Below, piece by piece: positions 12,417-20,613 of a stretch of DNA of 36,121 nucleotides. Numbering within the stretch: the stretch's first letter is position 1; each line of letters starts with the position of its first letter. The stretch is from the IMG/VR virus record IMGVR_UViG_2778261180_000005. One strand, 5' to 3'. The notes under the pieces were generated by a model. That model worked only from the letters and a program-made list of their open reading frames with translations, was not told where the DNA came from and did no database searches. This DNA comes from a virus. Taxonomy: Duplodnaviria > Heunggongvirae > Uroviricota > Caudoviricetes. A program made the translations under genes and the position numbers.

Positions 12417-14846
12417 TTACATCTTACGGCGCTGTGCGTCTTCTACCGCCTGAGCAACTAACTTAGCGTGACGTTTGATAGCATCCATGACCATCTTGTC
12501 TGAGCTATTAACGTTGCCGTTAATGTTCAAAGGCGCATTAACTTCAATCGGCTGAGAGTTACCACCGCCTGATTTTTGAGCAGCAAGGAAGTCTTTCAAA
12601 TCACCGTTAGTACGCTGATCAACTACTCGTTCACCCTTATCAAGCAACCATGTACCCTCACGAGGGATGTTATCAATACCATCATGAGCCATACCGCTAA
12701 CGTTAGTAGACTTGATGTTTGCGATGCTCCCCATGTTCTGAGAAACAGCCAATGCAGCAGCCGCGATTTTTTGACCTGTGGTTACGTTGGTTGGATCGTT
12801 CCATGCATCGGTAGCAGCCGTCCACATGTTCACCGTCGCTTGTCCAATGGAGAATGCTTTATGAGCAGTGAAAGCCATCTGCATAGCTTTAGTGTTTTCC
12901 TGCCCGAAGAGAGTCATTGCAGCAGCAAAACCGCCATACATATCATCGGCTATTGACTGTCGAGCATCAGCATATTTCTTCTCAATTGCAGCCATTCGTT
13001 TTTGATGGTTTTCATTGAGTTTTTCTAATGCTTCCATCCGTTTAGCCGGATCGGTGATCCCATCAATCTTGAGTTTATCGGTTTTATAATCTTGTTCAGC
13101 GTCCGATTTCTCTTTATCGATTGCATTAAATTTAGCAAACGGGTTATTCGAGTCCTGATAATCTAAACCATTGGTCAACTGATTGGTTTTAAAACCATCC
13201 ATTCCCTGTAAAGAATTTTCAATCTGAGAATAGTTTTGCTCGGTATCGTTCACACGACGCATATATTCTTCGTAGGAGATAGCTTTACCATCAAGTAACC
13301 GTTTATGGCTTTCTAGCTCGTTGTCCCTTATTTGTTGCAATTGTGTTAAGGCATTCAAAGCATCAACCGGATCAGCACCTAAAACCATTTTGTATACGTT
13401 TTCAGTATTCTGATCGATTAAGGATTGGCGTTTCGCGGCTGCGTCTTGCTGAGAGATTAAGCCCAGATCTAAAGCAGTGTCCAAATCTTTCAAGCTGGCT
13501 TCTAACTGCTTGTTCTGAGAAGCAATAGACGCGGCGACCTGCCCTTGCAATTTAACATCAAGTGCATTCAGACGCTTGATTGCATCCTCACGTTCTTTCT
13601 GTGCTTTTTCTGCGGCTTCCTTAGCCTTTTTAGCTGCCTCTTCCGCTTTCTTGCGTGCTTCTTCTTCGGCTTTCTTCTCATTGCCAGACTTACCCAATGA
13701 TTCTGGTCTTACTGGTTTATTTGGTATAGTCAAATCACGGTTAGGATCTGCCTTGCGAGTTAGATGTTCCCCGTTATCGACAACAATCAGAGAGCCATTT
13801 TTCTTATAAGAATCACCAAAACGTTTCTTAAATCCTTCAACATCAAAGCCAGCAGTACGAGGATCGACACCAGCACCACGGATCGCGGCCTTTTCCCAAT
13901 CTGCCAGATTATTCCAACGCTTTTCTTTATTGTACTTGTCAATAATCTTTTGAGCGTCTTTATGGTTGGTGTTAAGAATACCACCAGTTGCGGTCTTGCC
14001 TTCTTTATTCAGTCGATCTAATGCCCTGAATAGAGAACTCTTTTCCCAATCAATATTAAACCAGTCAAATAGCCAGTTTAAGCTATCAACCAAAGGACCA
14101 GTAATGGTCATGCCGACACCTTTCAGGTTATTTTCCAGCTTATTAATATTCTGAGAAAATTTATCATATTTTTTAGCGTTTTCTTCGGTGACGTTAACAG
14201 ATTGATTCTGAATAGCGATCATCGCCTCTTGAGCACTATTATATTTCTCAAGCTGGCTGGTCATATGGCTTGAATCACTGGCTAAAGATTCCATCATGAA
14301 CTTGATTTCAGCCATTGATTTTCCGGCTTTCTTCATGTCATAGAACACTTGGATCGCCGCTTTCATACCACCTTGCGGATCTGTCATGAAGTGAGCATAG
14401 TTTTCTAACTTAAGGCCAACCGATTCTAAGTCATCAGCAATACCACCACCGTTAGCCCACGCATCACCCATCTTATCTAAGGTGTCTTTGTTGATATCGC
14501 CAAATTTTTCAACTGTTAAGCCAGTGCCAGAAAATTCCTTTTCCAGTCTTTGAAGGGATTCAATCGAGAGTCCGGTCGCCTTAGATACTTCTGAATACTG
14601 TTTAACGTATTCCGCGCCAGCTTTAGCGGCTGCAACCACTGCGGTCGCAACTAAGCCGATACCACCAGCAGCCAAACCAGCAGAGCCAGCGATCCCACGA
14701 AGAGACCCAGTCAGACCAGATAAGCCACCACCAAAATCAATATTACTTGCCTTTTCAGACAAACTATCGAGAAGGTCGGCGGCTTCATTGGTACTTCTCC
14801 TTAGACCTTTATTATCCCCTTCTATTGTTACTATATGTCTTGTCAT
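12417..14846 (-). CDS. tail tape measure protein (809 aa)
   Basis: Large coiled-coil-rich ORF downstream of the G/T chaperones; Lys/Glu/Ala repeats (KKAEEEARKKAEEAAKKAKEAAEKAQ); AAGGGG SD. Confidence 0.9.
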   Translation of the reverse strand: MTRHIVTIEGDNKGLRRSTNEAADLLDSLSEKASNIDFGGGLSGLTGSLRGIAGSAGLAAGGIGLVATAVVAAAKAGAEYVKQYSEVSKATGLSIESLQRLEKEFSGTGLTVEKFGDINKDTLDKMGDAWANGGGIADDLESVGLKLENYAHFMTDPQGGMKAAIQVFYDMKKAGKSMAEIKFMMESLASDSSHMTSQLEKYNSAQEAMIAIQNQSVNVTEENAKKYDKFSQNINKLENNLKGVGMTITGPLVDSLNWLFDWFNIDWEKSSLFRALDRLNKEGKTATGGILNTNHKDAQKIIDKYNKEKRWNNLADWEKAAIRGAGVDPRTAGFDVEGFKKRFGDSYKKNGSLIVVDNGEHLTRKADPNRDLTIPNKPVRPESLGKSGNEKKAEEEARKKAEEAAKKAKEAAEKAQKEREDAIKRLNALDVKLQGQVAASIASQNKQLEASLKDLDTALDLGLISQQDAAAKRQSLIDQNTENVYKMVLGADPVDALNALTQLQQIRDNELESHKRLLDGKAISYEEYMRRVNDTEQNYSQIENSLQGMDGFKTNQLTNGLDYQDSNNPFAKFNAIDKEKSDAEQDYKTDKLKIDGITDPAKRMEALEKLNENHQKRMAAIEKKYADARQSIADDMYGGFAAAMTLFGQENTKAMQMAFTAHKAFSIGQATVNMWTAATDAWNDPTNVTTGQKIAAAALAVSQNMGSIANIKSTNVSGMAHDGIDNIPREGTWLLDKGERVVDQRTNGDLKDFLAAQKSGGGNSQPIEVNAPLNINGNVNSSDKMVMDAIKRHAKLVAQAVEDAQRRKM

Positions 14847-14857
14847 AAATTACCCCT

Positions 14858-15199
14858 TTAACCGCTTCTGAGTTTCTCAAGCAAAGATGGATCAAACATG
14901 TTCAGCATTGCCGCTTTACGTTCTTCTTCTTTCTTGCGTGCAATTTCTTCCAGTTCTTCTTTAGTTTTAAAGAGTTTTTCTTCTCTAATTAATTGGAATT
15001 GGCTAGGCTTGAGTTTACGTGCAGTTTCGCGTGTCATTCCTTGCGACGTCATATACATGGAATATTGCAACATCGCATTCTGCATATCATGAAACGCGGG
15101 GCTTTGTGGTTCTAAGTAGGTGTCGAAAATGTATAATTTCCAAAACAGAGTGATTGGCATATTATCCATTTCATCTTTACTAAGCCCCGATCTCATCAT
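14858..15199 (-). CDS. tail assembly chaperone, T-like ORF, probably made as a G-T fusion by -1 frameshift
   Basis: No SD before its own ATG; its reading frame is open back to 18 nt upstream of the G stop; candidate slip site AAAG-UAA at the G stop. Confidence 0.5.
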   Translation of the reverse strand: MMRSGLSKDEMDNMPITLFWKLYIFDTYLEPQSPAFHDMQNAMLQYSMYMTSQGMTRETARKLKPSQFQLIREEKLFKTKEELEEIARKKEEERKAAMLNMFDPSLLEKLRSG

Positions 15200-15228
15200 T
15201 TGCCGGAAATAGAAATTCAGAAGCGGGT

Positions 15229-15537
15229 TTACTTTACCTCGTTTTCAATTACTGCCGGATCTTGCATCAATGACGCTTGAGCAACTAAACCGATTAATTC
15301 ACTTCGAACGTTAGTATACAGTGCCTTAACTTGTTCCATAGATTCAAATACTGGCTTACCGTCTTCATCTTCAATACAACGAAGAATAGAACGTTCATCA
15401 CGGTCTTCTTTATCAGTATTGAAAACATGTTCGTTAAATTCTTTTACTGACATAGGGCGAGCATAGAAAGTGAATCCACCGATGGTCAAAGATTCACGTT
15501 TCGGAGAGAGTGCGGCTAACATTTCATTAATATTCAT
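15229..15537 (-). CDS. tail assembly chaperone, G-like (102 aa)
   Basis: Conserved position between tail tube and tape measure; AGGAAA SD. Confidence 0.65.
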   Translation of the reverse strand: MNINEMLAALSPKRESLTIGGFTFYARPMSVKEFNEHVFNTDKEDRDERSILRCIEDEDGKPVFESMEQVKALYTNVRSELIGLVAQASLMQDPAVIENEVK

Positions 15538-15619: not shown

Positions 15620-16093
15620 TTAGACGACTTTCTGGAAAACAGCTTGTTTAACCGGAGCACCATCTACTACAAAGGTGAAGGTACGGCCTACTACAGCATC
15701 CTCACCACCAGTCATGGTAGTTTTAGACAGGAAGCCGTTATAAGCGATATGTACACCAGATTTTTTCGTAGCATCGATGTAGTAAGCAATTTTAAGCTGT
15801 ACGCGCTTACCGTCTTCGGTTGCTTTAATCAGTTTTTCGTGTACTTCGTTACCCGGCATGTAGTTGATCGAAAGTTCGATATCCGGTACAGACATACGAC
15901 CAACCAGCTTACGGTTATAAGCACCAGAGAAGTTAGGAACATCGATCGTAGAACGTTCTACACCAGTTTCCGGGAACGCTGCGCATTCTGGGATTTCCAG
16001 ATAGGTTTCAGCATCAAGGTCTTTATTGCTTACGTCTTCTTGCAGAAACAGACCAACGAGGCCACCAGAGAAAATATCAAATTTAGTAGTCAT
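15620..16093 (-). CDS. major tail (tube) protein (157 aa)
   Basis: Immediately upstream of the G/T chaperones; AAGGAAAAG SD; followed by its own terminator. Confidence 0.7.
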   Translation of the reverse strand: MTTKFDIFSGGLVGLFLQEDVSNKDLDAETYLEIPECAAFPETGVERSTIDVPNFSGAYNRKLVGRMSVPDIELSINYMPGNEVHEKLIKATEDGKRVQLKIAYYIDATKKSGVHIAYNGFLSKTTMTGGEDAVVGRTFTFVVDGAPVKQAVFQKVV

Positions 16094-16147
16094 TATTCTT
16101 TTCCTTCTATTTTAAACAATAGGGCACATACCCGTAATTCTATTTAT

Positions 16148-16450
16148 TTAGCGGTTGCTCAAACGTCTATAACGAAGATGAGCGACCCCCCTATTTGTGC
16201 TAACGGTAATTACCGCCCCTTGCGGTGCAATACAAGAATGGATCTGTCCCCAATCATGCCCCTTATGGCTTCCAGAAACACAAAAACCATGAATAAACAA
16301 TTCAGAGTCACCGCCGCCACCACCGGAAGAATGAGCACAGAATGAAATAGTCCCGAAAGCGTCGGCTGTCCAACCGTTAGGAATATCAAACCATCCTTGA
16401 TTTGCTTTACCCGCCCTATTCCCCAAAGCGCCATCTACCCAAAATGCCAT
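16148..16450 (-). CDS. small Gly-rich protein, paralog 3 (FDIPNGW family)
   Basis: One of three tandem paralogs sharing M.xW...FDIPNGW...G-rich...(Y/H)FKF; start overlaps the upstream stop. Confidence 0.6.
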   Translation of the reverse strand: MAFWVDGALGNRAGKANQGWFDIPNGWTADAFGTISFCAHSSGGGGGDSELFIHGFCVSGSHKGHDWGQIHSCIAPQGAVITVSTNRGVAHLRYRRLSNR

Positions 16451-16755
16451 TAGTGCATTCTCCTGAATTTGAAATAATGCAATCCACCTTTACCCAATGT
16501 AAAGCTAACGGTAGCACCAGCGCCAACTAAAGAACTAGCGCCCCAACTTCCGGCATTACCAGCGTGATGACCTGATTCAATCAATCCATTTACAGCCAAT
16601 TCAGAATCAAGATCACCAGCACCGTTAATGGCTTCCATATGAGCAAAAACAATTCCGCATGAATCAGTGACCCAACCGTTGGGGATATCAAAATATCCAC
16701 CATTAGCCCAAATACTAATAGCGTTTGACATTCTTTGATTTATCCATCCAGCCAT
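16450..16755 (-). CDS. small Gly-rich protein, paralog 2 (FDIPNGW family)
   Basis: Tandem paralog, tightly packed with its neighbours. Confidence 0.6.
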   Translation of the reverse strand: MAGWINQRMSNAISIWANGGYFDIPNGWVTDSCGIVFAHMEAINGAGDLDSELAVNGLIESGHHAGNAGSWGASSLVGAGATVSFTLGKGGLHYFKFRRMH

Positions 16756-16757
16756 AA

Positions 16758-17054
16758 TTAAAACTCCATGAATTTAAAATATTCAACACCACCTTCACCC
16801 CCTAAACCAAAGGAGACGGTGCAGCCAGCAGGAACAAACGAATTTATAGTAGATCCCCAATTGGACCCACCACGACGACGAGCAACGGTCAAACCATCTA
16901 CGTTAATATGTGCATCAGACCATCCACCACCAGCATTATGACGCATGACAGCAACGCCAGCGCGAGCAGTACCATAGCCGTTAGGAATATCAAATACATG
17001 CCATTTTAAAGCATCGATTTTAGTATTAATTTCACTACTTACCCAATATCCCAT
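16758..17054 (-). CDS. small Gly-rich protein, paralog 1 (FDIPNGY family)
   Basis: Tandem paralog; AAGGA SD; preceded on the mRNA by hairpin GCGGGGA..TCCCCGC (17068..17085). Confidence 0.6.
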   Translation of the reverse strand: MGYWVSSEINTKIDALKWHVFDIPNGYGTARAGVAVMRHNAGGGWSDAHINVDGLTVARRRGGSNWGSTINSFVPAGCTVSFGLGGEGGVEYFKFMEF

Positions 17055-17091: not shown

Positions 17092-20000
17092 TTACCCTAA
17101 TTTAGCTTCAATTGCAGCAAGACGTTCACGAAGAAGTTTATTTTCTTCGCTCATTTCTTGGACCGCTTTAATTAAAAGCGCGTTCACTGCGGAGTTTGAA
17201 ATTGTTAAAATTTCTTCTGGGTTATCAAGAGATCCGACATTAGAAGTGCTAACAGCTTCCGGTAAAATTTCTTGTAAATCCTGTGCGATAATACCAATCT
17301 CATGTGCGATGACTTCTCTGTCAGAAAGAGACTTAACTTTATCGTAGGTTTTAACTTTTAGTTTATTTACCTTATCTACCGCATTTTCTTCGTAGTCTTC
17401 AACGTTAATTTTCAGACGACGGTCGGAACGAATATAAACATCGTTACAGTAAACCGACGCACTAGATGTGAAATCACCATTTGCAGCCCATGAATACCAG
17501 CCGCCTTTGTTCATATGCATCATTACGGTAGCTTGACCACCGCCAGCATGAACACCCATTGCCGCAAGATGATCAACACCCCAATGAGTTGCTTTCCAAA
17601 TTGAATATGCTTGGGTATGTGAATCCTGACAATCTAAGAGAATACCAGCAGGACGGTTGCGCCAGTCATCCCATGCACCACCAGAAACCTCACCACGGAT
17701 AAGAGCGTATTCACCATTATATGGAACACGTTCTCCCGCTTTAATCATTGCACCCTGGAAGTGATGACTAAATGAACCCCCATGATTATTTCGTATATGT
17801 AAAATACCATCATCTGTAGCCCAGATAACAGCCTTTTCCGATTCGCTGTCATCTCTAAACCAGATATGGCGTGCACCAGTTGAGTTTTTGATGGTTATTC
17901 CGGTAGGTCCATGCACGGTCAAAGCACCAGCTACATCAAATAAAACGGTGTTATCTGTTCTACGTTCAGTATAGAAGTGATAACCTTTGGAATCGCCGAT
18001 TTCCATTACTGCCGCGCGTCCAACTTCTGAATTTCCCCAATTGTTGATAGAGAATCGTTCAGAGCTATTATTCATCTGATTTAGGTATAATGTACCGTCA
18101 GTGAATGTTTCGCCAAAGAATCTAGTTTTAATGCTATTGGTTCCGGTGCGTTCAAATTCGGCTAAAAATCCTTTTGAGTCACGAAGACTTAAAACGTTAT
18201 TTCGACCTGTATTGCTTGCCCCCCAATGGACGAGTTCCATATAGTCCATAGATTGACGAGAACCAGATTTAAATAAAAGGTTGTCTTCGAGACGAGTGCT
18301 ACCATCAATTCCCAGGTGCAAACAACGAGCGGTTTCAGTACCACCTAAATATAGTCCACCATCATCAAAATTATAGCTGAATGGTCTGCGATTATTCCAA
18401 CTACCAAAAGAATCTTTTAAATTGGTAGTAAGAATATGGAAGCTAGAACCGTCATTGCGTAACATCAAACCATAGTTACCGCCTTTAACAGCCAAACGAG
18501 CATTTTCAGATAATGCAACTTCGCTATTCATTACAATTTTCTGGCCTTTACCACCAGTAATATGTAATTCACCGTCTTCGATCAAATTTATCGAGTTTTG
18601 ACCGTTATCGTTCCACCAAATAAAATCTTTGGTCGTCAAATCACCAAAACCAAACCAGCCATTACGAACATCTTGACCAGTGCGATAATCCATAAAATTA
18701 AAATGGCTTGCTTCGTTTGGTCCTCGACGAATATCAATACCAGCATTAGAACCGGAACCTAAGCCACCATCGATGGTCAATCTACGAATATGCAAACCGG
18801 TTACAGCCGAAAGCAATAATTGTTGGGTTACATCGGTATATCCAGTAGCAAGACGATAATTTTGGTCATCAACACTTTCGTGCCAGATAGTGGCAGGAGC
18901 AGAACTACGGAAGCGACGCAACATCTTTTTAGCATTTGTCGGTTGTTCGTTCATATGCTCAATGTCGTATTGGCCTTGATGGTTTCCAGCAAAATTTAAC
19001 GTTCCACGGTTGCTAAAGTTATTGAACGATGAAATGTTAAGAGCATCAAAAATTTCATCTGCAACAGGTTTTTCACCACCCAGATATTCAGGAGTATCCA
19101 ACAGGTTTAAAGAAACACCACCGGAAGAAACTTGATATTCTGCTAAAACAAATCCTGTATGTGCACCGTAGTAAGCGTAAAGATCGTAATTATCACCATC
19201 GGTTGGAATAGCGCAAAAATGTTGTTCATAATGCCAAATAGTATAATACGCATTGAATACAACACCTTTCGGGCTATTGTTGCCGCATCGAATCACCAAT
19301 TCGATAATATTGGCTTGTCCATTCATCCCGACGTTATAACCGTTACCACCAACCAAACGGATCTTAGCGGTGCGACCGTGTTGCTGTGGCATTGTCAAAG
19401 TGCCTAGTTTAAACCAACCACCCTCGATCCCAAAATTAAGCGTCTTCTGGAACAGTCGGTCAATTTCTGCTTTCGAATATGCGCCAATTTCAGCCGGAGT
19501 AGGTTTATCGCCTTCATGATACATGCGGTGAGAATATGACAAGTTACCCAATTCATCGTAGCCGTATGTTCTTACCGTATGAACCGGATTAGACCCATAA
19601 GTGAACTCAAAGCCACGAGCATGATTAACACCAGATGGATGCGGAACATGCAAGATCATTGCAATATGACCCGCCAGGTCATTCATGCGGAATGCACCAA
19701 AGTAGTCAAGATTACGCGCACTCGGATCATCAAAATAGTTTGCGGTCTTAGACAACAAATAACCATCAGTATAAGTGTTTACGTGTTTTTTGATGTACTT
19801 GCCATCACTCGATCCGTCGGCTGCATCAATACGGCTTTCTAAGCGTGCCAGTTCAGAATCAGTGTAAGACTTGTTATTGTCAACTTTGCTATGAATTGCT
19901 GAATTTTTGGCTTCAACATCACGGGTTAATGCTGCGACGTTATCCGCTGCCTCTTGCTTATTAGCCGCAATCACACCAGTAAGGTTATTGTAGGTGTCAG

Positions 20001-20613
20001 TTAACTGATTTTCCGCATAGACTTTATTTGCTGCGATAGTGCGGTCAGTTTCTGTCTTAATCAGATCAACTTTGTCATTGATTGCTTTGTCATTACTTGC
20101 GATTGTCGCGTCGGTACGGGATTTAATATCATCAACTTTTTTATTGATGCGGGTGTCCAGTTCCTGAGTTGCTACAGCAGCCGCATTTTTATTAGCGTTG
20201 ATGGTATCCGACAATTCAGCTTTAACACCAGCAAGATCGGAAGCAGCTTTATTTTTATTAGCTTCGATTGTCGCGTCGGTTTCGCGTTTAATTACATCAA
20301 CTTTATTGTTAATTTCTGCATGATTTGCTGCGATAGTAGAATCAGTAGTTTGTTTAATTTCATCTACTTTAGCGTGAATATTGCGGTCATTTACTGCAAT
20401 TGTGCTATCCAATTCTTGTTTGTTAGCATCAACTTTAGATTCTAGTGCCGCGTGAGTTTCAGGAGAAACAGAGATTTGAACTACTTCATGATCTCGGTCT
20501 TTGGTAAAAATAACATGGTCTTTAAGGTTGATTGCCACCTCACCGACCTGTAATTGTTCCGGCGTTGGCTTTTTGCCAGAAACATTAGTTCGTTTAAATT
20601 GGATTGATTGCAT
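17092..20613 (-). CDS. side tail fibre with C-terminal intramolecular chaperone (peptidase S74-like) domain, 1173 aa
   Basis: N-terminus KPTPEQLQVGEVAINLKD; about six ~22-aa repeats (KVDxIKxxTDxTIxAN); C-terminus SDRRLKINVEDYE...GIIAQDLQEILPEAV typical of autocleaving fibre chaperone domains; GAGGTGA SD. Confidence 0.85.
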   Translation of the reverse strand: MQSIQFKRTNVSGKKPTPEQLQVGEVAINLKDHVIFTKDRDHEVVQISVSPETHAALESKVDANKQELDSTIAVNDRNIHAKVDEIKQTTDSTIAANHAEINNKVDVIKRETDATIEANKNKAASDLAGVKAELSDTINANKNAAAVATQELDTRINKKVDDIKSRTDATIASNDKAINDKVDLIKTETDRTIAANKVYAENQLTDTYNNLTGVIAANKQEAADNVAALTRDVEAKNSAIHSKVDNNKSYTDSELARLESRIDAADGSSDGKYIKKHVNTYTDGYLLSKTANYFDDPSARNLDYFGAFRMNDLAGHIAMILHVPHPSGVNHARGFEFTYGSNPVHTVRTYGYDELGNLSYSHRMYHEGDKPTPAEIGAYSKAEIDRLFQKTLNFGIEGGWFKLGTLTMPQQHGRTAKIRLVGGNGYNVGMNGQANIIELVIRCGNNSPKGVVFNAYYTIWHYEQHFCAIPTDGDNYDLYAYYGAHTGFVLAEYQVSSGGVSLNLLDTPEYLGGEKPVADEIFDALNISSFNNFSNRGTLNFAGNHQGQYDIEHMNEQPTNAKKMLRRFRSSAPATIWHESVDDQNYRLATGYTDVTQQLLLSAVTGLHIRRLTIDGGLGSGSNAGIDIRRGPNEASHFNFMDYRTGQDVRNGWFGFGDLTTKDFIWWNDNGQNSINLIEDGELHITGGKGQKIVMNSEVALSENARLAVKGGNYGLMLRNDGSSFHILTTNLKDSFGSWNNRRPFSYNFDDGGLYLGGTETARCLHLGIDGSTRLEDNLLFKSGSRQSMDYMELVHWGASNTGRNNVLSLRDSKGFLAEFERTGTNSIKTRFFGETFTDGTLYLNQMNNSSERFSINNWGNSEVGRAAVMEIGDSKGYHFYTERRTDNTVLFDVAGALTVHGPTGITIKNSTGARHIWFRDDSESEKAVIWATDDGILHIRNNHGGSFSHHFQGAMIKAGERVPYNGEYALIRGEVSGGAWDDWRNRPAGILLDCQDSHTQAYSIWKATHWGVDHLAAMGVHAGGGQATVMMHMNKGGWYSWAANGDFTSSASVYCNDVYIRSDRRLKINVEDYEENAVDKVNKLKVKTYDKVKSLSDREVIAHEIGIIAQDLQEILPEAVSTSNVGSLDNPEEILTISNSAVNALLIKAVQEMSEENKLLRERLAAIEAKLG
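20010..20470 (-). repeat. in-frame tandem coding repeats within the side-fibre gene
   Basis: Recurrent DNA blocks (such as CGATTGTCGCGTCGGT...ATCAACTTT) encoding the KVDxIK..TDxTIxAN repeats; coordinates approximate. Confidence 0.6.

Follow-up and report, generated by a model that had tools for sequence, protein, structure and literature searches.

A probable programmed −1 frameshift on G_GUA_AAG joining the tail assembly chaperone genes G and T of an enterobacterial prophage family

The stretch of viral DNA analysed here (36,121 nucleotides, IMG/VR record IMGVR_UViG_2778261180_000005, Caudoviricetes; hereafter the window) carries two small open reading frames, G and T, between its major tail tube and tape measure genes. 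The locus as a whole is best explained, with high probability in our judgement, by a −1 ribosomal slip on the sequence G_GUA_AAG that joins G and T, and we hold a −1 shift at A_AAG, by whatever route, to be about equally probable. Most ribosomes would translate G and terminate at its UAA, while a small fraction would slip back by one base on G_GUA_AAG, with tRNA-Lys moving from AAG to AAA, aided by a partial re-pairing of tRNA-Val from GUA to GGU, and would then continue in the T frame to produce a G-T fusion of 226 residues, T having no independent translation start.

The genes for the tail tube, G, T and the tape measure follow one another in this order, all on the minus strand (Table 1), and the relatives keep the same order. 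The 3′ end of G reads ATT GAA AAC GAG GTA AAG TAA, with the AAG codon at 15234-15232, and T lies in the −1 frame relative to it, as a preliminary description of this DNA had stated and as translation bears out. The first ATG of T, at 15199, has the G stop 30 nt upstream, and a second ATG follows at 15196. The preliminary description took the −1 frame to be open over the last 18 nt, or six codons, of G; it is in fact closed by a TGA further downstream than this would allow, so that any shift joining G to T is limited to the last 13 nt of G before its stop, made up of AAC GAG GTA AAG and the last base of GAA. This open stretch also measures 13 nt in several relatives, L034 among them, and 13-25 nt in most. 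The conceptual −1 fusion, ...ENEVK-VNPLLNFYFRQMMRSG... (226 aa, ∼25 kDa), reproduces exactly the junction proposed earlier, ENEVK-VNPLLNFYFRQ. Written across the junction, the sequence runs ...ENEVK and then VNPLLNFYFRQMMR...; trypsin would cut it exactly at the junction, and the predicted junction-spanning Glu-C peptide is VKVNPLLNFYFRQMMRSGLSKDE.

Table 1. Features of the G/T locus, in coordinates of the window.
Feature	Coordinates	Strand	Basis or remark
Tape measure gene	12417..14846	−	PHROG 13674 'tail length tape measure protein', E 2.6e-64; directly downstream of T
T open reading frame, 113 aa from ATG	14858..15199	−	ORF-finder call; putative C-terminal T-like domain of the predicted 226-aa G-T fusion
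11 T-frame codons (VNPLLNFYFRQ) from slip site to first T ATG	15200..15232	−	Translatable solely within a G-T fusion
G stop UAA, directly 3′ of the putative slip codon	15229..15231	−	Possible auxiliary pause signal
Gene G, predicted tail assembly chaperone, 102 aa	15229..15537	−	PHROG 344; TAC fold in the model
Putative slip site G_GUA_AAG	15232..15238	−	A_AAG in frame in 64/64 non-redundant loci
TGA in the −1 (T) frame, upstream closure of the T frame	15245..15247	−	Direct reading and translation
Major tail tube gene, directly upstream of G	15620..16093	−	PHROG 158 'major tail protein', E 6.7e-20; RefSeq 'phage tail tube protein'

The first of the two products matches PHROG 344, 'tail assembly chaperone' (TAC), with an E-value of 1.8e-7, and according to its AF2 model (pLDDT 78.9, built from 23 homologues) G is a TAC-fold protein: the best match of the model in the PDB is the HK97 tail assembly chaperone (2OB9, probability 1.00, TM 0.61), and its best matches among viral models are annotated TACs. 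Against the Pfam family Phage_TAC_13, which is matched by five of six divergent relatives, G scores 22.2 bits and thus stays below the cut-off of 28.8; T scores 21.8 bits against Phage_tail_T (PF06223; cut-off 25.9, E 2.5e-4), with weak matches in three of the six divergent relatives. A profile search of G against PDB sequences returned EncB at chance level and nothing else. The last ∼11 residues of G, which bear the slip site, are predicted to be disordered, which fits the expectation for a linker. We consider it highly likely that G and T, encoded by an enterobacterial prophage resembling siphoviruses, are a pair of tail assembly chaperones of the lambda type, and by analogy with lambda the G part would bind the tape measure and the T part would recruit the tube protein.

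Relatives were gathered from viral contigs, genomes, metagenomes and an exact-protein look-up, and after the removal of duplicates 64 loci with 44-100% protein identity remained, including the window. At the DNA level, the phage collection yielded no close annotated phage and short mosaic matches only, while the scan of genome contigs gave no match with a single protein and one locus (L070) with a profile. In all 64 loci, A_AAG stands in frame at the aligned position and inside the open T-frame stretch (Table 2), and G[U/A/C]A_AAG, being the sole sequence that the relatives have in common within the stretch where a shift is permitted, is the only candidate site. The strongest single pointer to this codon comes from a distant relative (L093), in which the canonical dnaX heptamer A_AAA_AAG occupies the aligned position. 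The mere presence of the 7-mer AAAGTAA is uninformative, as it occurs in the window about as often as expected by chance (9 found, 8.9 expected); what gives it weight is where it lies and that relatives conserve it. The comparison thus places the shift where the preliminary description had put it, at the A_AAG that ends G, with T-frame constraint beginning directly after it.

Table 2. Sequence variants at the aligned slip site among the 64 non-redundant loci.
Slip-site sequence and following codons	Loci
G_GTA_AAG then TAA	48 (34 distinct haplotypes)
G_GAA_AAG then TAA	5
G_GTA_AAG then TGA	1 (L073)
G_GTA_AAG then TAG	1 (L012)
G_GCA_AAG then TAA	1 (L091)
T_GTA_AAG then TAA	1 (L097)
G_GTA_AAG then AAA, stop 4 sense codons past AAG	2 (L069, L096)
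G_GAA_AAG then AAC, TAA	1 (L087)
A_GAA_AAG then AAA, TAA	1 (L088)
A_GAA_AAG then CCC, TGA	1 (L089)
A_GTA_AAG then GAA, stop 11 sense codons past AAG	1 (L086)
A_AAA_AAG then TCC, stop 6 sense codons past AAG	1 (L093)

The other tetramer of this kind in the permitted stretch of the window, A_AAC (in GAA AAC), was tried as the shift site and rejected, because it is not conserved: relatives with the same arrangement read GAA GAA TCG (L023, L034) or GAA AGC instead, and in E. coli tRNA-Asn shifts poorly as a single tRNA (PMC5009743). Transcriptional slippage would have to act on runs of A that do not exceed 4 nt, whereas RNA polymerase would need far longer ones. That G and T are joined by either of these, or by another ribosomal event elsewhere near the end of G, appears to us very improbable.

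The heptamer is constrained at the nucleotide level. Among 37 distinct sequences of the clade of the window, column entropy is zero at the third position of each of the four G-frame codons that make up G-GTA-AAG-TAA, whereas third positions elsewhere within the final 30 codons of G mostly reach 0.5-1.6. The lysine at the site is always encoded by AAG, despite a local AAA:AAG ratio of 119:50, and the codon before GTA, which may specify Glu, Ser or Ala, ends in G in each case (GAG, TCG, GCG), GAG accounting for 20 of the 158 local Glu codons (GAA:GAG = 138:20). The one exception, L097, has Asp (GAT) before GTA, an amino acid without any G-ending codon. That the first position of the heptamer has been kept as G across GAG, TCG and GCG implies selection on the re-pairing of tRNA-Val from GUA to GGU, a pairing that carries a mismatch at the middle base; this position is nevertheless non-essential, since it is T in L097 (T_GUA_AAG) and A in the relatives with A_G[U/A]A_AAG. 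The preliminary description had seen no classic heptamer at the end of G, and there is indeed no strict X_XXY_YYZ in the permitted stretch, but G_GUA_AAG (15238-15232) belongs to a recognised near-canonical type and, given the implied re-pairing of tRNA-Val, is better termed a near-canonical heptamer than described as the lack of one.

Downstream of the site, translation in the T frame leaves its mark well before the first possible ATG. In the same 37 sequences, the coding signature of the T frame, in which entropy is low at the first two codon positions and high at the third, begins at the first codons past the site and hence 11 codons upstream of the T ATG. Within these codons, leucine alternates between CTT and CTC (and TTC) at one site and between CTG, TTA and TTG at another, Phe between TTC and TTT, Tyr between TAT and TAC, and Gln between CAA and CAG, and the arginine at 15200 and following is encoded by all six of its codons (AGA, AGG, CGA, CGC, CGG, CGT). 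The 11 codons contain no ATG, GTG or TTG start in the window. A non-ATG start of T was considered and rejected, as the TTG that occurs in some relatives follows the conserved VNP and is 15 nt away from the sole SD-like sequence.

These data also bear on the view that no frameshift takes place and that T is made separately from the ATG at 15199 or 15196, for example by re-initiation after the G stop, which is near enough for translational coupling in principle. Most relatives do have ATG, and thus Met, at this place, and RefSeq and other annotators call a T gene of its own, but at least six different methionines serve as T starts across database records. The ATGs of the window are replaced in relatives by ATT, GCG or TTA and by CTA or CTT, and two lineages (L088, with RAIL, and L091, with RQAL) have lost both methionines of the MM seen in the window. 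For neither T ATG does the anti-SD duplex exceed −1.7 kcal/mol in strength, compared with −5.7 to −7.9 kcal/mol for the tube, G (−6.0 kcal/mol), tape measure, fibre and neighbouring genes, in agreement with the earlier remark that T has no SD sequence. As separate synthesis would further leave unexplained both the T-frame evolution of the 11 upstream codons and the invariance of the nucleotides of G GTA AAG, we regard it as quite unlikely, if less so than an event at another site.

The sequence features of the favoured −1 slip on G_GUA_AAG have precedents in several known systems. The frameshift that produces lambda G-T occurs on G_GGA_AAG, and the G/GT arrangement is conserved in long-tailed phages (Levin 1993; Xu 2004; both as reviewed in PMC5009743). 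Our locus resembles it in having two small ORFs flanked by the genes for the tail tube and the tape measure, in a second ORF that lies in the −1 frame and lacks a start signal of its own, in a shift near the end of G with an A-site AAG read by tRNA-Lys, in the Gly-Lys that the −1 frame encodes across the site in both, and in the TAC fold predicted for G, the match of T to Phage_tail_T being weak. It differs in that the P-site codon is GUA here and GGA in lambda, so that the heptamer does not conform to X_XXY_YYZ, in that no sense codon of G follows the slip codon, and in that G and T fall below the curated Pfam cut-offs.

Slippage of tRNA-Lys from AAG to AAA next to a P-site codon that is unable to re-pair fully is likewise seen at the NNA_AAG sites used by IS1222 (G_CGA_AAG) and present in Bacillus subtilis cdd (A_CGA_AAG) (PMC5009743), and at the A_AAG of IS3 (PMC4066793); there, however, strong downstream pseudoknots or stem-loops (IS3, IS1222) or an upstream SD (cdd) accompany the site, whereas we found no conserved stimulator. 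G_GU is an accepted context for partial re-pairing, as in T7 gene 10 (PMC5009743), whose 10A/10B site G_GUU_UUC shares with ours the X_XX of G_GU and the re-pairing of tRNA-Val from GUN to GGU, but has UUC (Phe) in the A site and lies in a capsid gene. Read as a sequence, G_GUA_AAG joins the G_GU of T7 gene 10 to the A_AAG found in lambda G-T and in dnaX. With synteny, a second ORF in the −1 frame without start signals, a conserved slippery sequence and a first ORF of predicted TAC fold, the locus is well supported by sequence comparison as a programmed −1 frameshift that joins the known G/GT class, at a mildly unusual site.

What might stimulate the slip is less apparent. In the window alone, the fold downstream of the site is no better than that of shuffled sequences (MFE z-score +1.05), and RNAalifold returned 0 pairs both in the wide alignment and in the clade-only alignment. 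A candidate CCCG/CGGG hairpin was rejected, since it is paired in 65% of cells, which equals the shuffled mean, and fails the shuffled and slid controls. GAGG, two bases before AAG, was also rejected as an SD-like stimulator: it is unconserved, with TCGG, CTGG, ACAG, ATAG and GATG as its equivalents in relatives, and is too close for stimulation of the dnaX type; no SD-like element was found at the dnaX-type distance of 10-14 nt upstream. The locus shows neither the conserved downstream hairpin or pseudoknot nor the upstream SD-like element of the stimulated dnaX/IS3-type cassette. In E. coli, no tetramer is more prone to shifting than A_AAG; in a reporter, A_AA.G yields ∼0.15% frameshifting without a stimulator, which is near background, and 5.6% with a pseudoknot (PMC4066793). 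Apart from the re-pairing at position 1 and, possibly, the stop codon, the sequence shows no candidate for an enhancer.

The stop codon directly after the slip site merits separate consideration. It is present, as TAA, TGA or TAG, in 57 of the 64 loci, next to two separate heptamer contexts, G_GUA_AAG and G_GAA_AAG. Where it has changed it has stayed a stop: in L073 TAA has become TGA, which in the T frame is the synonymous change GTA to GTG, and in L012 an insertion of 3 nt yields AAG TAG. In line with this, the T-frame valine is encoded by GTA or GTG and never by GTT or GTC, either of which would remove the stop, though GTT is the commonest Val codon locally. Such a pattern is what would favour a stop-gated slip of a single tRNA (a 'hungry' or 'shifty stop'), in which the delay until a release factor arrives at the UAA in the A site would let tRNA-Lys slip from AAG to AAA, the UAA being the main stimulator and the availability of release factor setting the ratio of G to GT. 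That one tRNA can slip while the A site is vacant, independently of any structure downstream, is well established (PMC6771820), and this would accord with the failure to find an RNA structure or an SD stimulator at this locus.

Several observations weigh against a gating role of the stop. In seven lineages (L069, L096, L086, L087, L088, L089, L093), AAG is separated from the stop by 1, 4, 6 or 11 sense codons, with AAA, AAC, CCC, GAA or UCC directly past AAG, which indicates that an adjacent stop is not required; in six of the seven the heptamer is still non-canonical, so that the loss of the stop has not been compensated by a better slip site. The stop is followed by A in the window (UAA-A) and by U in the group of L070 (UAA-U). 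Both UAA-A and UAA-U are efficient terminators in E. coli, not weak 'shifty' ones. The selection for G at position 1, moreover, points to the re-pairing of a second tRNA. Work in E. coli cited in PMC4373837 found −1 frameshifting to be reduced when a stop was placed behind a slippery heptamer, and to be abolished by overexpression of release factor. We accordingly rate stop-gated slippage of one tRNA as an unlikely, though not negligible, account of the shift, and find it slightly more doubtful still that the ratio of G to GT is set by a structure-free slip of this kind whose rate tracks the availability of release factor, and hence the physiology of the host. If true, it would represent a natural bacterial −1 'shifty stop' recoding in an essential step of virion assembly.

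A milder role of the stop is easier to reconcile with these data. With tRNA-Lys on AAG in the P site, the A site would be empty, and the adjacent stop may raise the efficiency of the slip in this way; as no other stimulator was found, a stop-assisted, 'hungry' slip of one tRNA remains a reasonable proposal and is plausible at the end of G. The two-tRNA route and the stop-gated one-tRNA route predict an identical fusion sequence. Of the 'shifty stop' put forward in the preliminary description, the adjacency of the stop thus stands for the large majority of loci, while its necessity does not, and the shift probably does not hinge on the stop, which would be an aid or a coincidence; the essential stop that characterises the 'shifty stop' class is not what the relatives display. 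Zero-frame stops directly after the shift site are also known from the −1 sites of Rous sarcoma virus gag-pol and barley yellow dwarf virus (PMC4373837) and from the +1 'shifty stops' of prfB and antizyme. The two viral sites differ from ours in having canonical heptamers and strong RNA structures, and the stop of Rous sarcoma virus is reported to be without effect on efficiency, while prfB and antizyme differ in the direction of the shift and in their weak stop contexts.

The element is a prophage of E. coli and related bacteria, carried for instance by E. coli L3Cip3 (NZ_CP062211). The region occurs in 52 of 5,426 complete E. coli genomes, and Salmonella, Shigella, Proteus, Providencia and Edwardsiella have homologues. 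In public records, G appears as 'cytochrome' or 'hypothetical protein' and T as 'hypothetical protein', and no joined G-T product is given. The label 'cytochrome' is attached to G in many NCBI/RefSeq records from E. coli, Salmonella, Proteus and Edwardsiella (homologues P0072-P0103), and because both the fold and the PHROG match indicate a TAC, we take it to be a propagated misannotation. The reading proposed here, a −1 slip on G_GUA_AAG, would provide a corrected gene model for G and T in a prophage family whose T starts are annotated inconsistently, and a natural example of −1 frameshifting on a non-canonical heptamer with no detectable RNA stimulator. Frameshift predictors confined to XXXYYYZ would overlook sites of the G_GUA_AAG type. 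The lineages with and without an adjacent stop, in turn, form a natural contrast for the effect of the stop on bacterial −1 slippage.

A few of the collected sequences are anomalous around the junction or in their origin. One (L022) has a premature stop in T, 93 T-frame codons after the slip site, another (L080) a −1 frame that is open over 43 codons, and a third (P0091) an indel at the slip region, where it reads ENEVK-C-KPASEF... in the +1 frame; such copies probably reflect prophage decay or faulty assembly. The locus recovered by the profile scan of genome contigs (L070, JBEBQJ010000175.1; 57% identity) lies on a 10-kb contig binned in a Sphingobacterium MAG. For a prophage module of enterobacterial type this assignment is doubtful; junctions near-identical to that of L070 occur in four loci from other metagenomes (L082-L085).

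The tail region upstream of the tube gene has features of its own. A gene at 17092-20613 on the minus strand encodes a long-tail-fibre-like protein of 1173 aa (PHROG 1699, E 1e-132), which carries a T4 Gp34 trimerisation domain and, at its C terminus, an intramolecular chaperone of the Peptidase_S74 type, and the location of a fibre gene upstream of the tube, TAC and tape measure genes is an unusual order for a tail module of siphovirus type. Between the long tail fibre and tail tube genes lie three tandem paralogous ORFs of ∼100 aa each (16148-16450, 16450-16755 and 16758-17054, minus strand), which share the motif (F/W)DIPNG(W/Y), have no match in Pfam or PHROG, and might be fibre-associated or adhesin-like. 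In three relatives (L092, L093, L098), Gp38_N/GP38 adhesin domains are found beside the tube gene. Finally, 69 nt at ∼16132-16200 match the T4-like Escherichia phage vB_EcoM_G37-3 with 100% identity and further T-even phages with 82-87%, which suggests a recent mosaic exchange.
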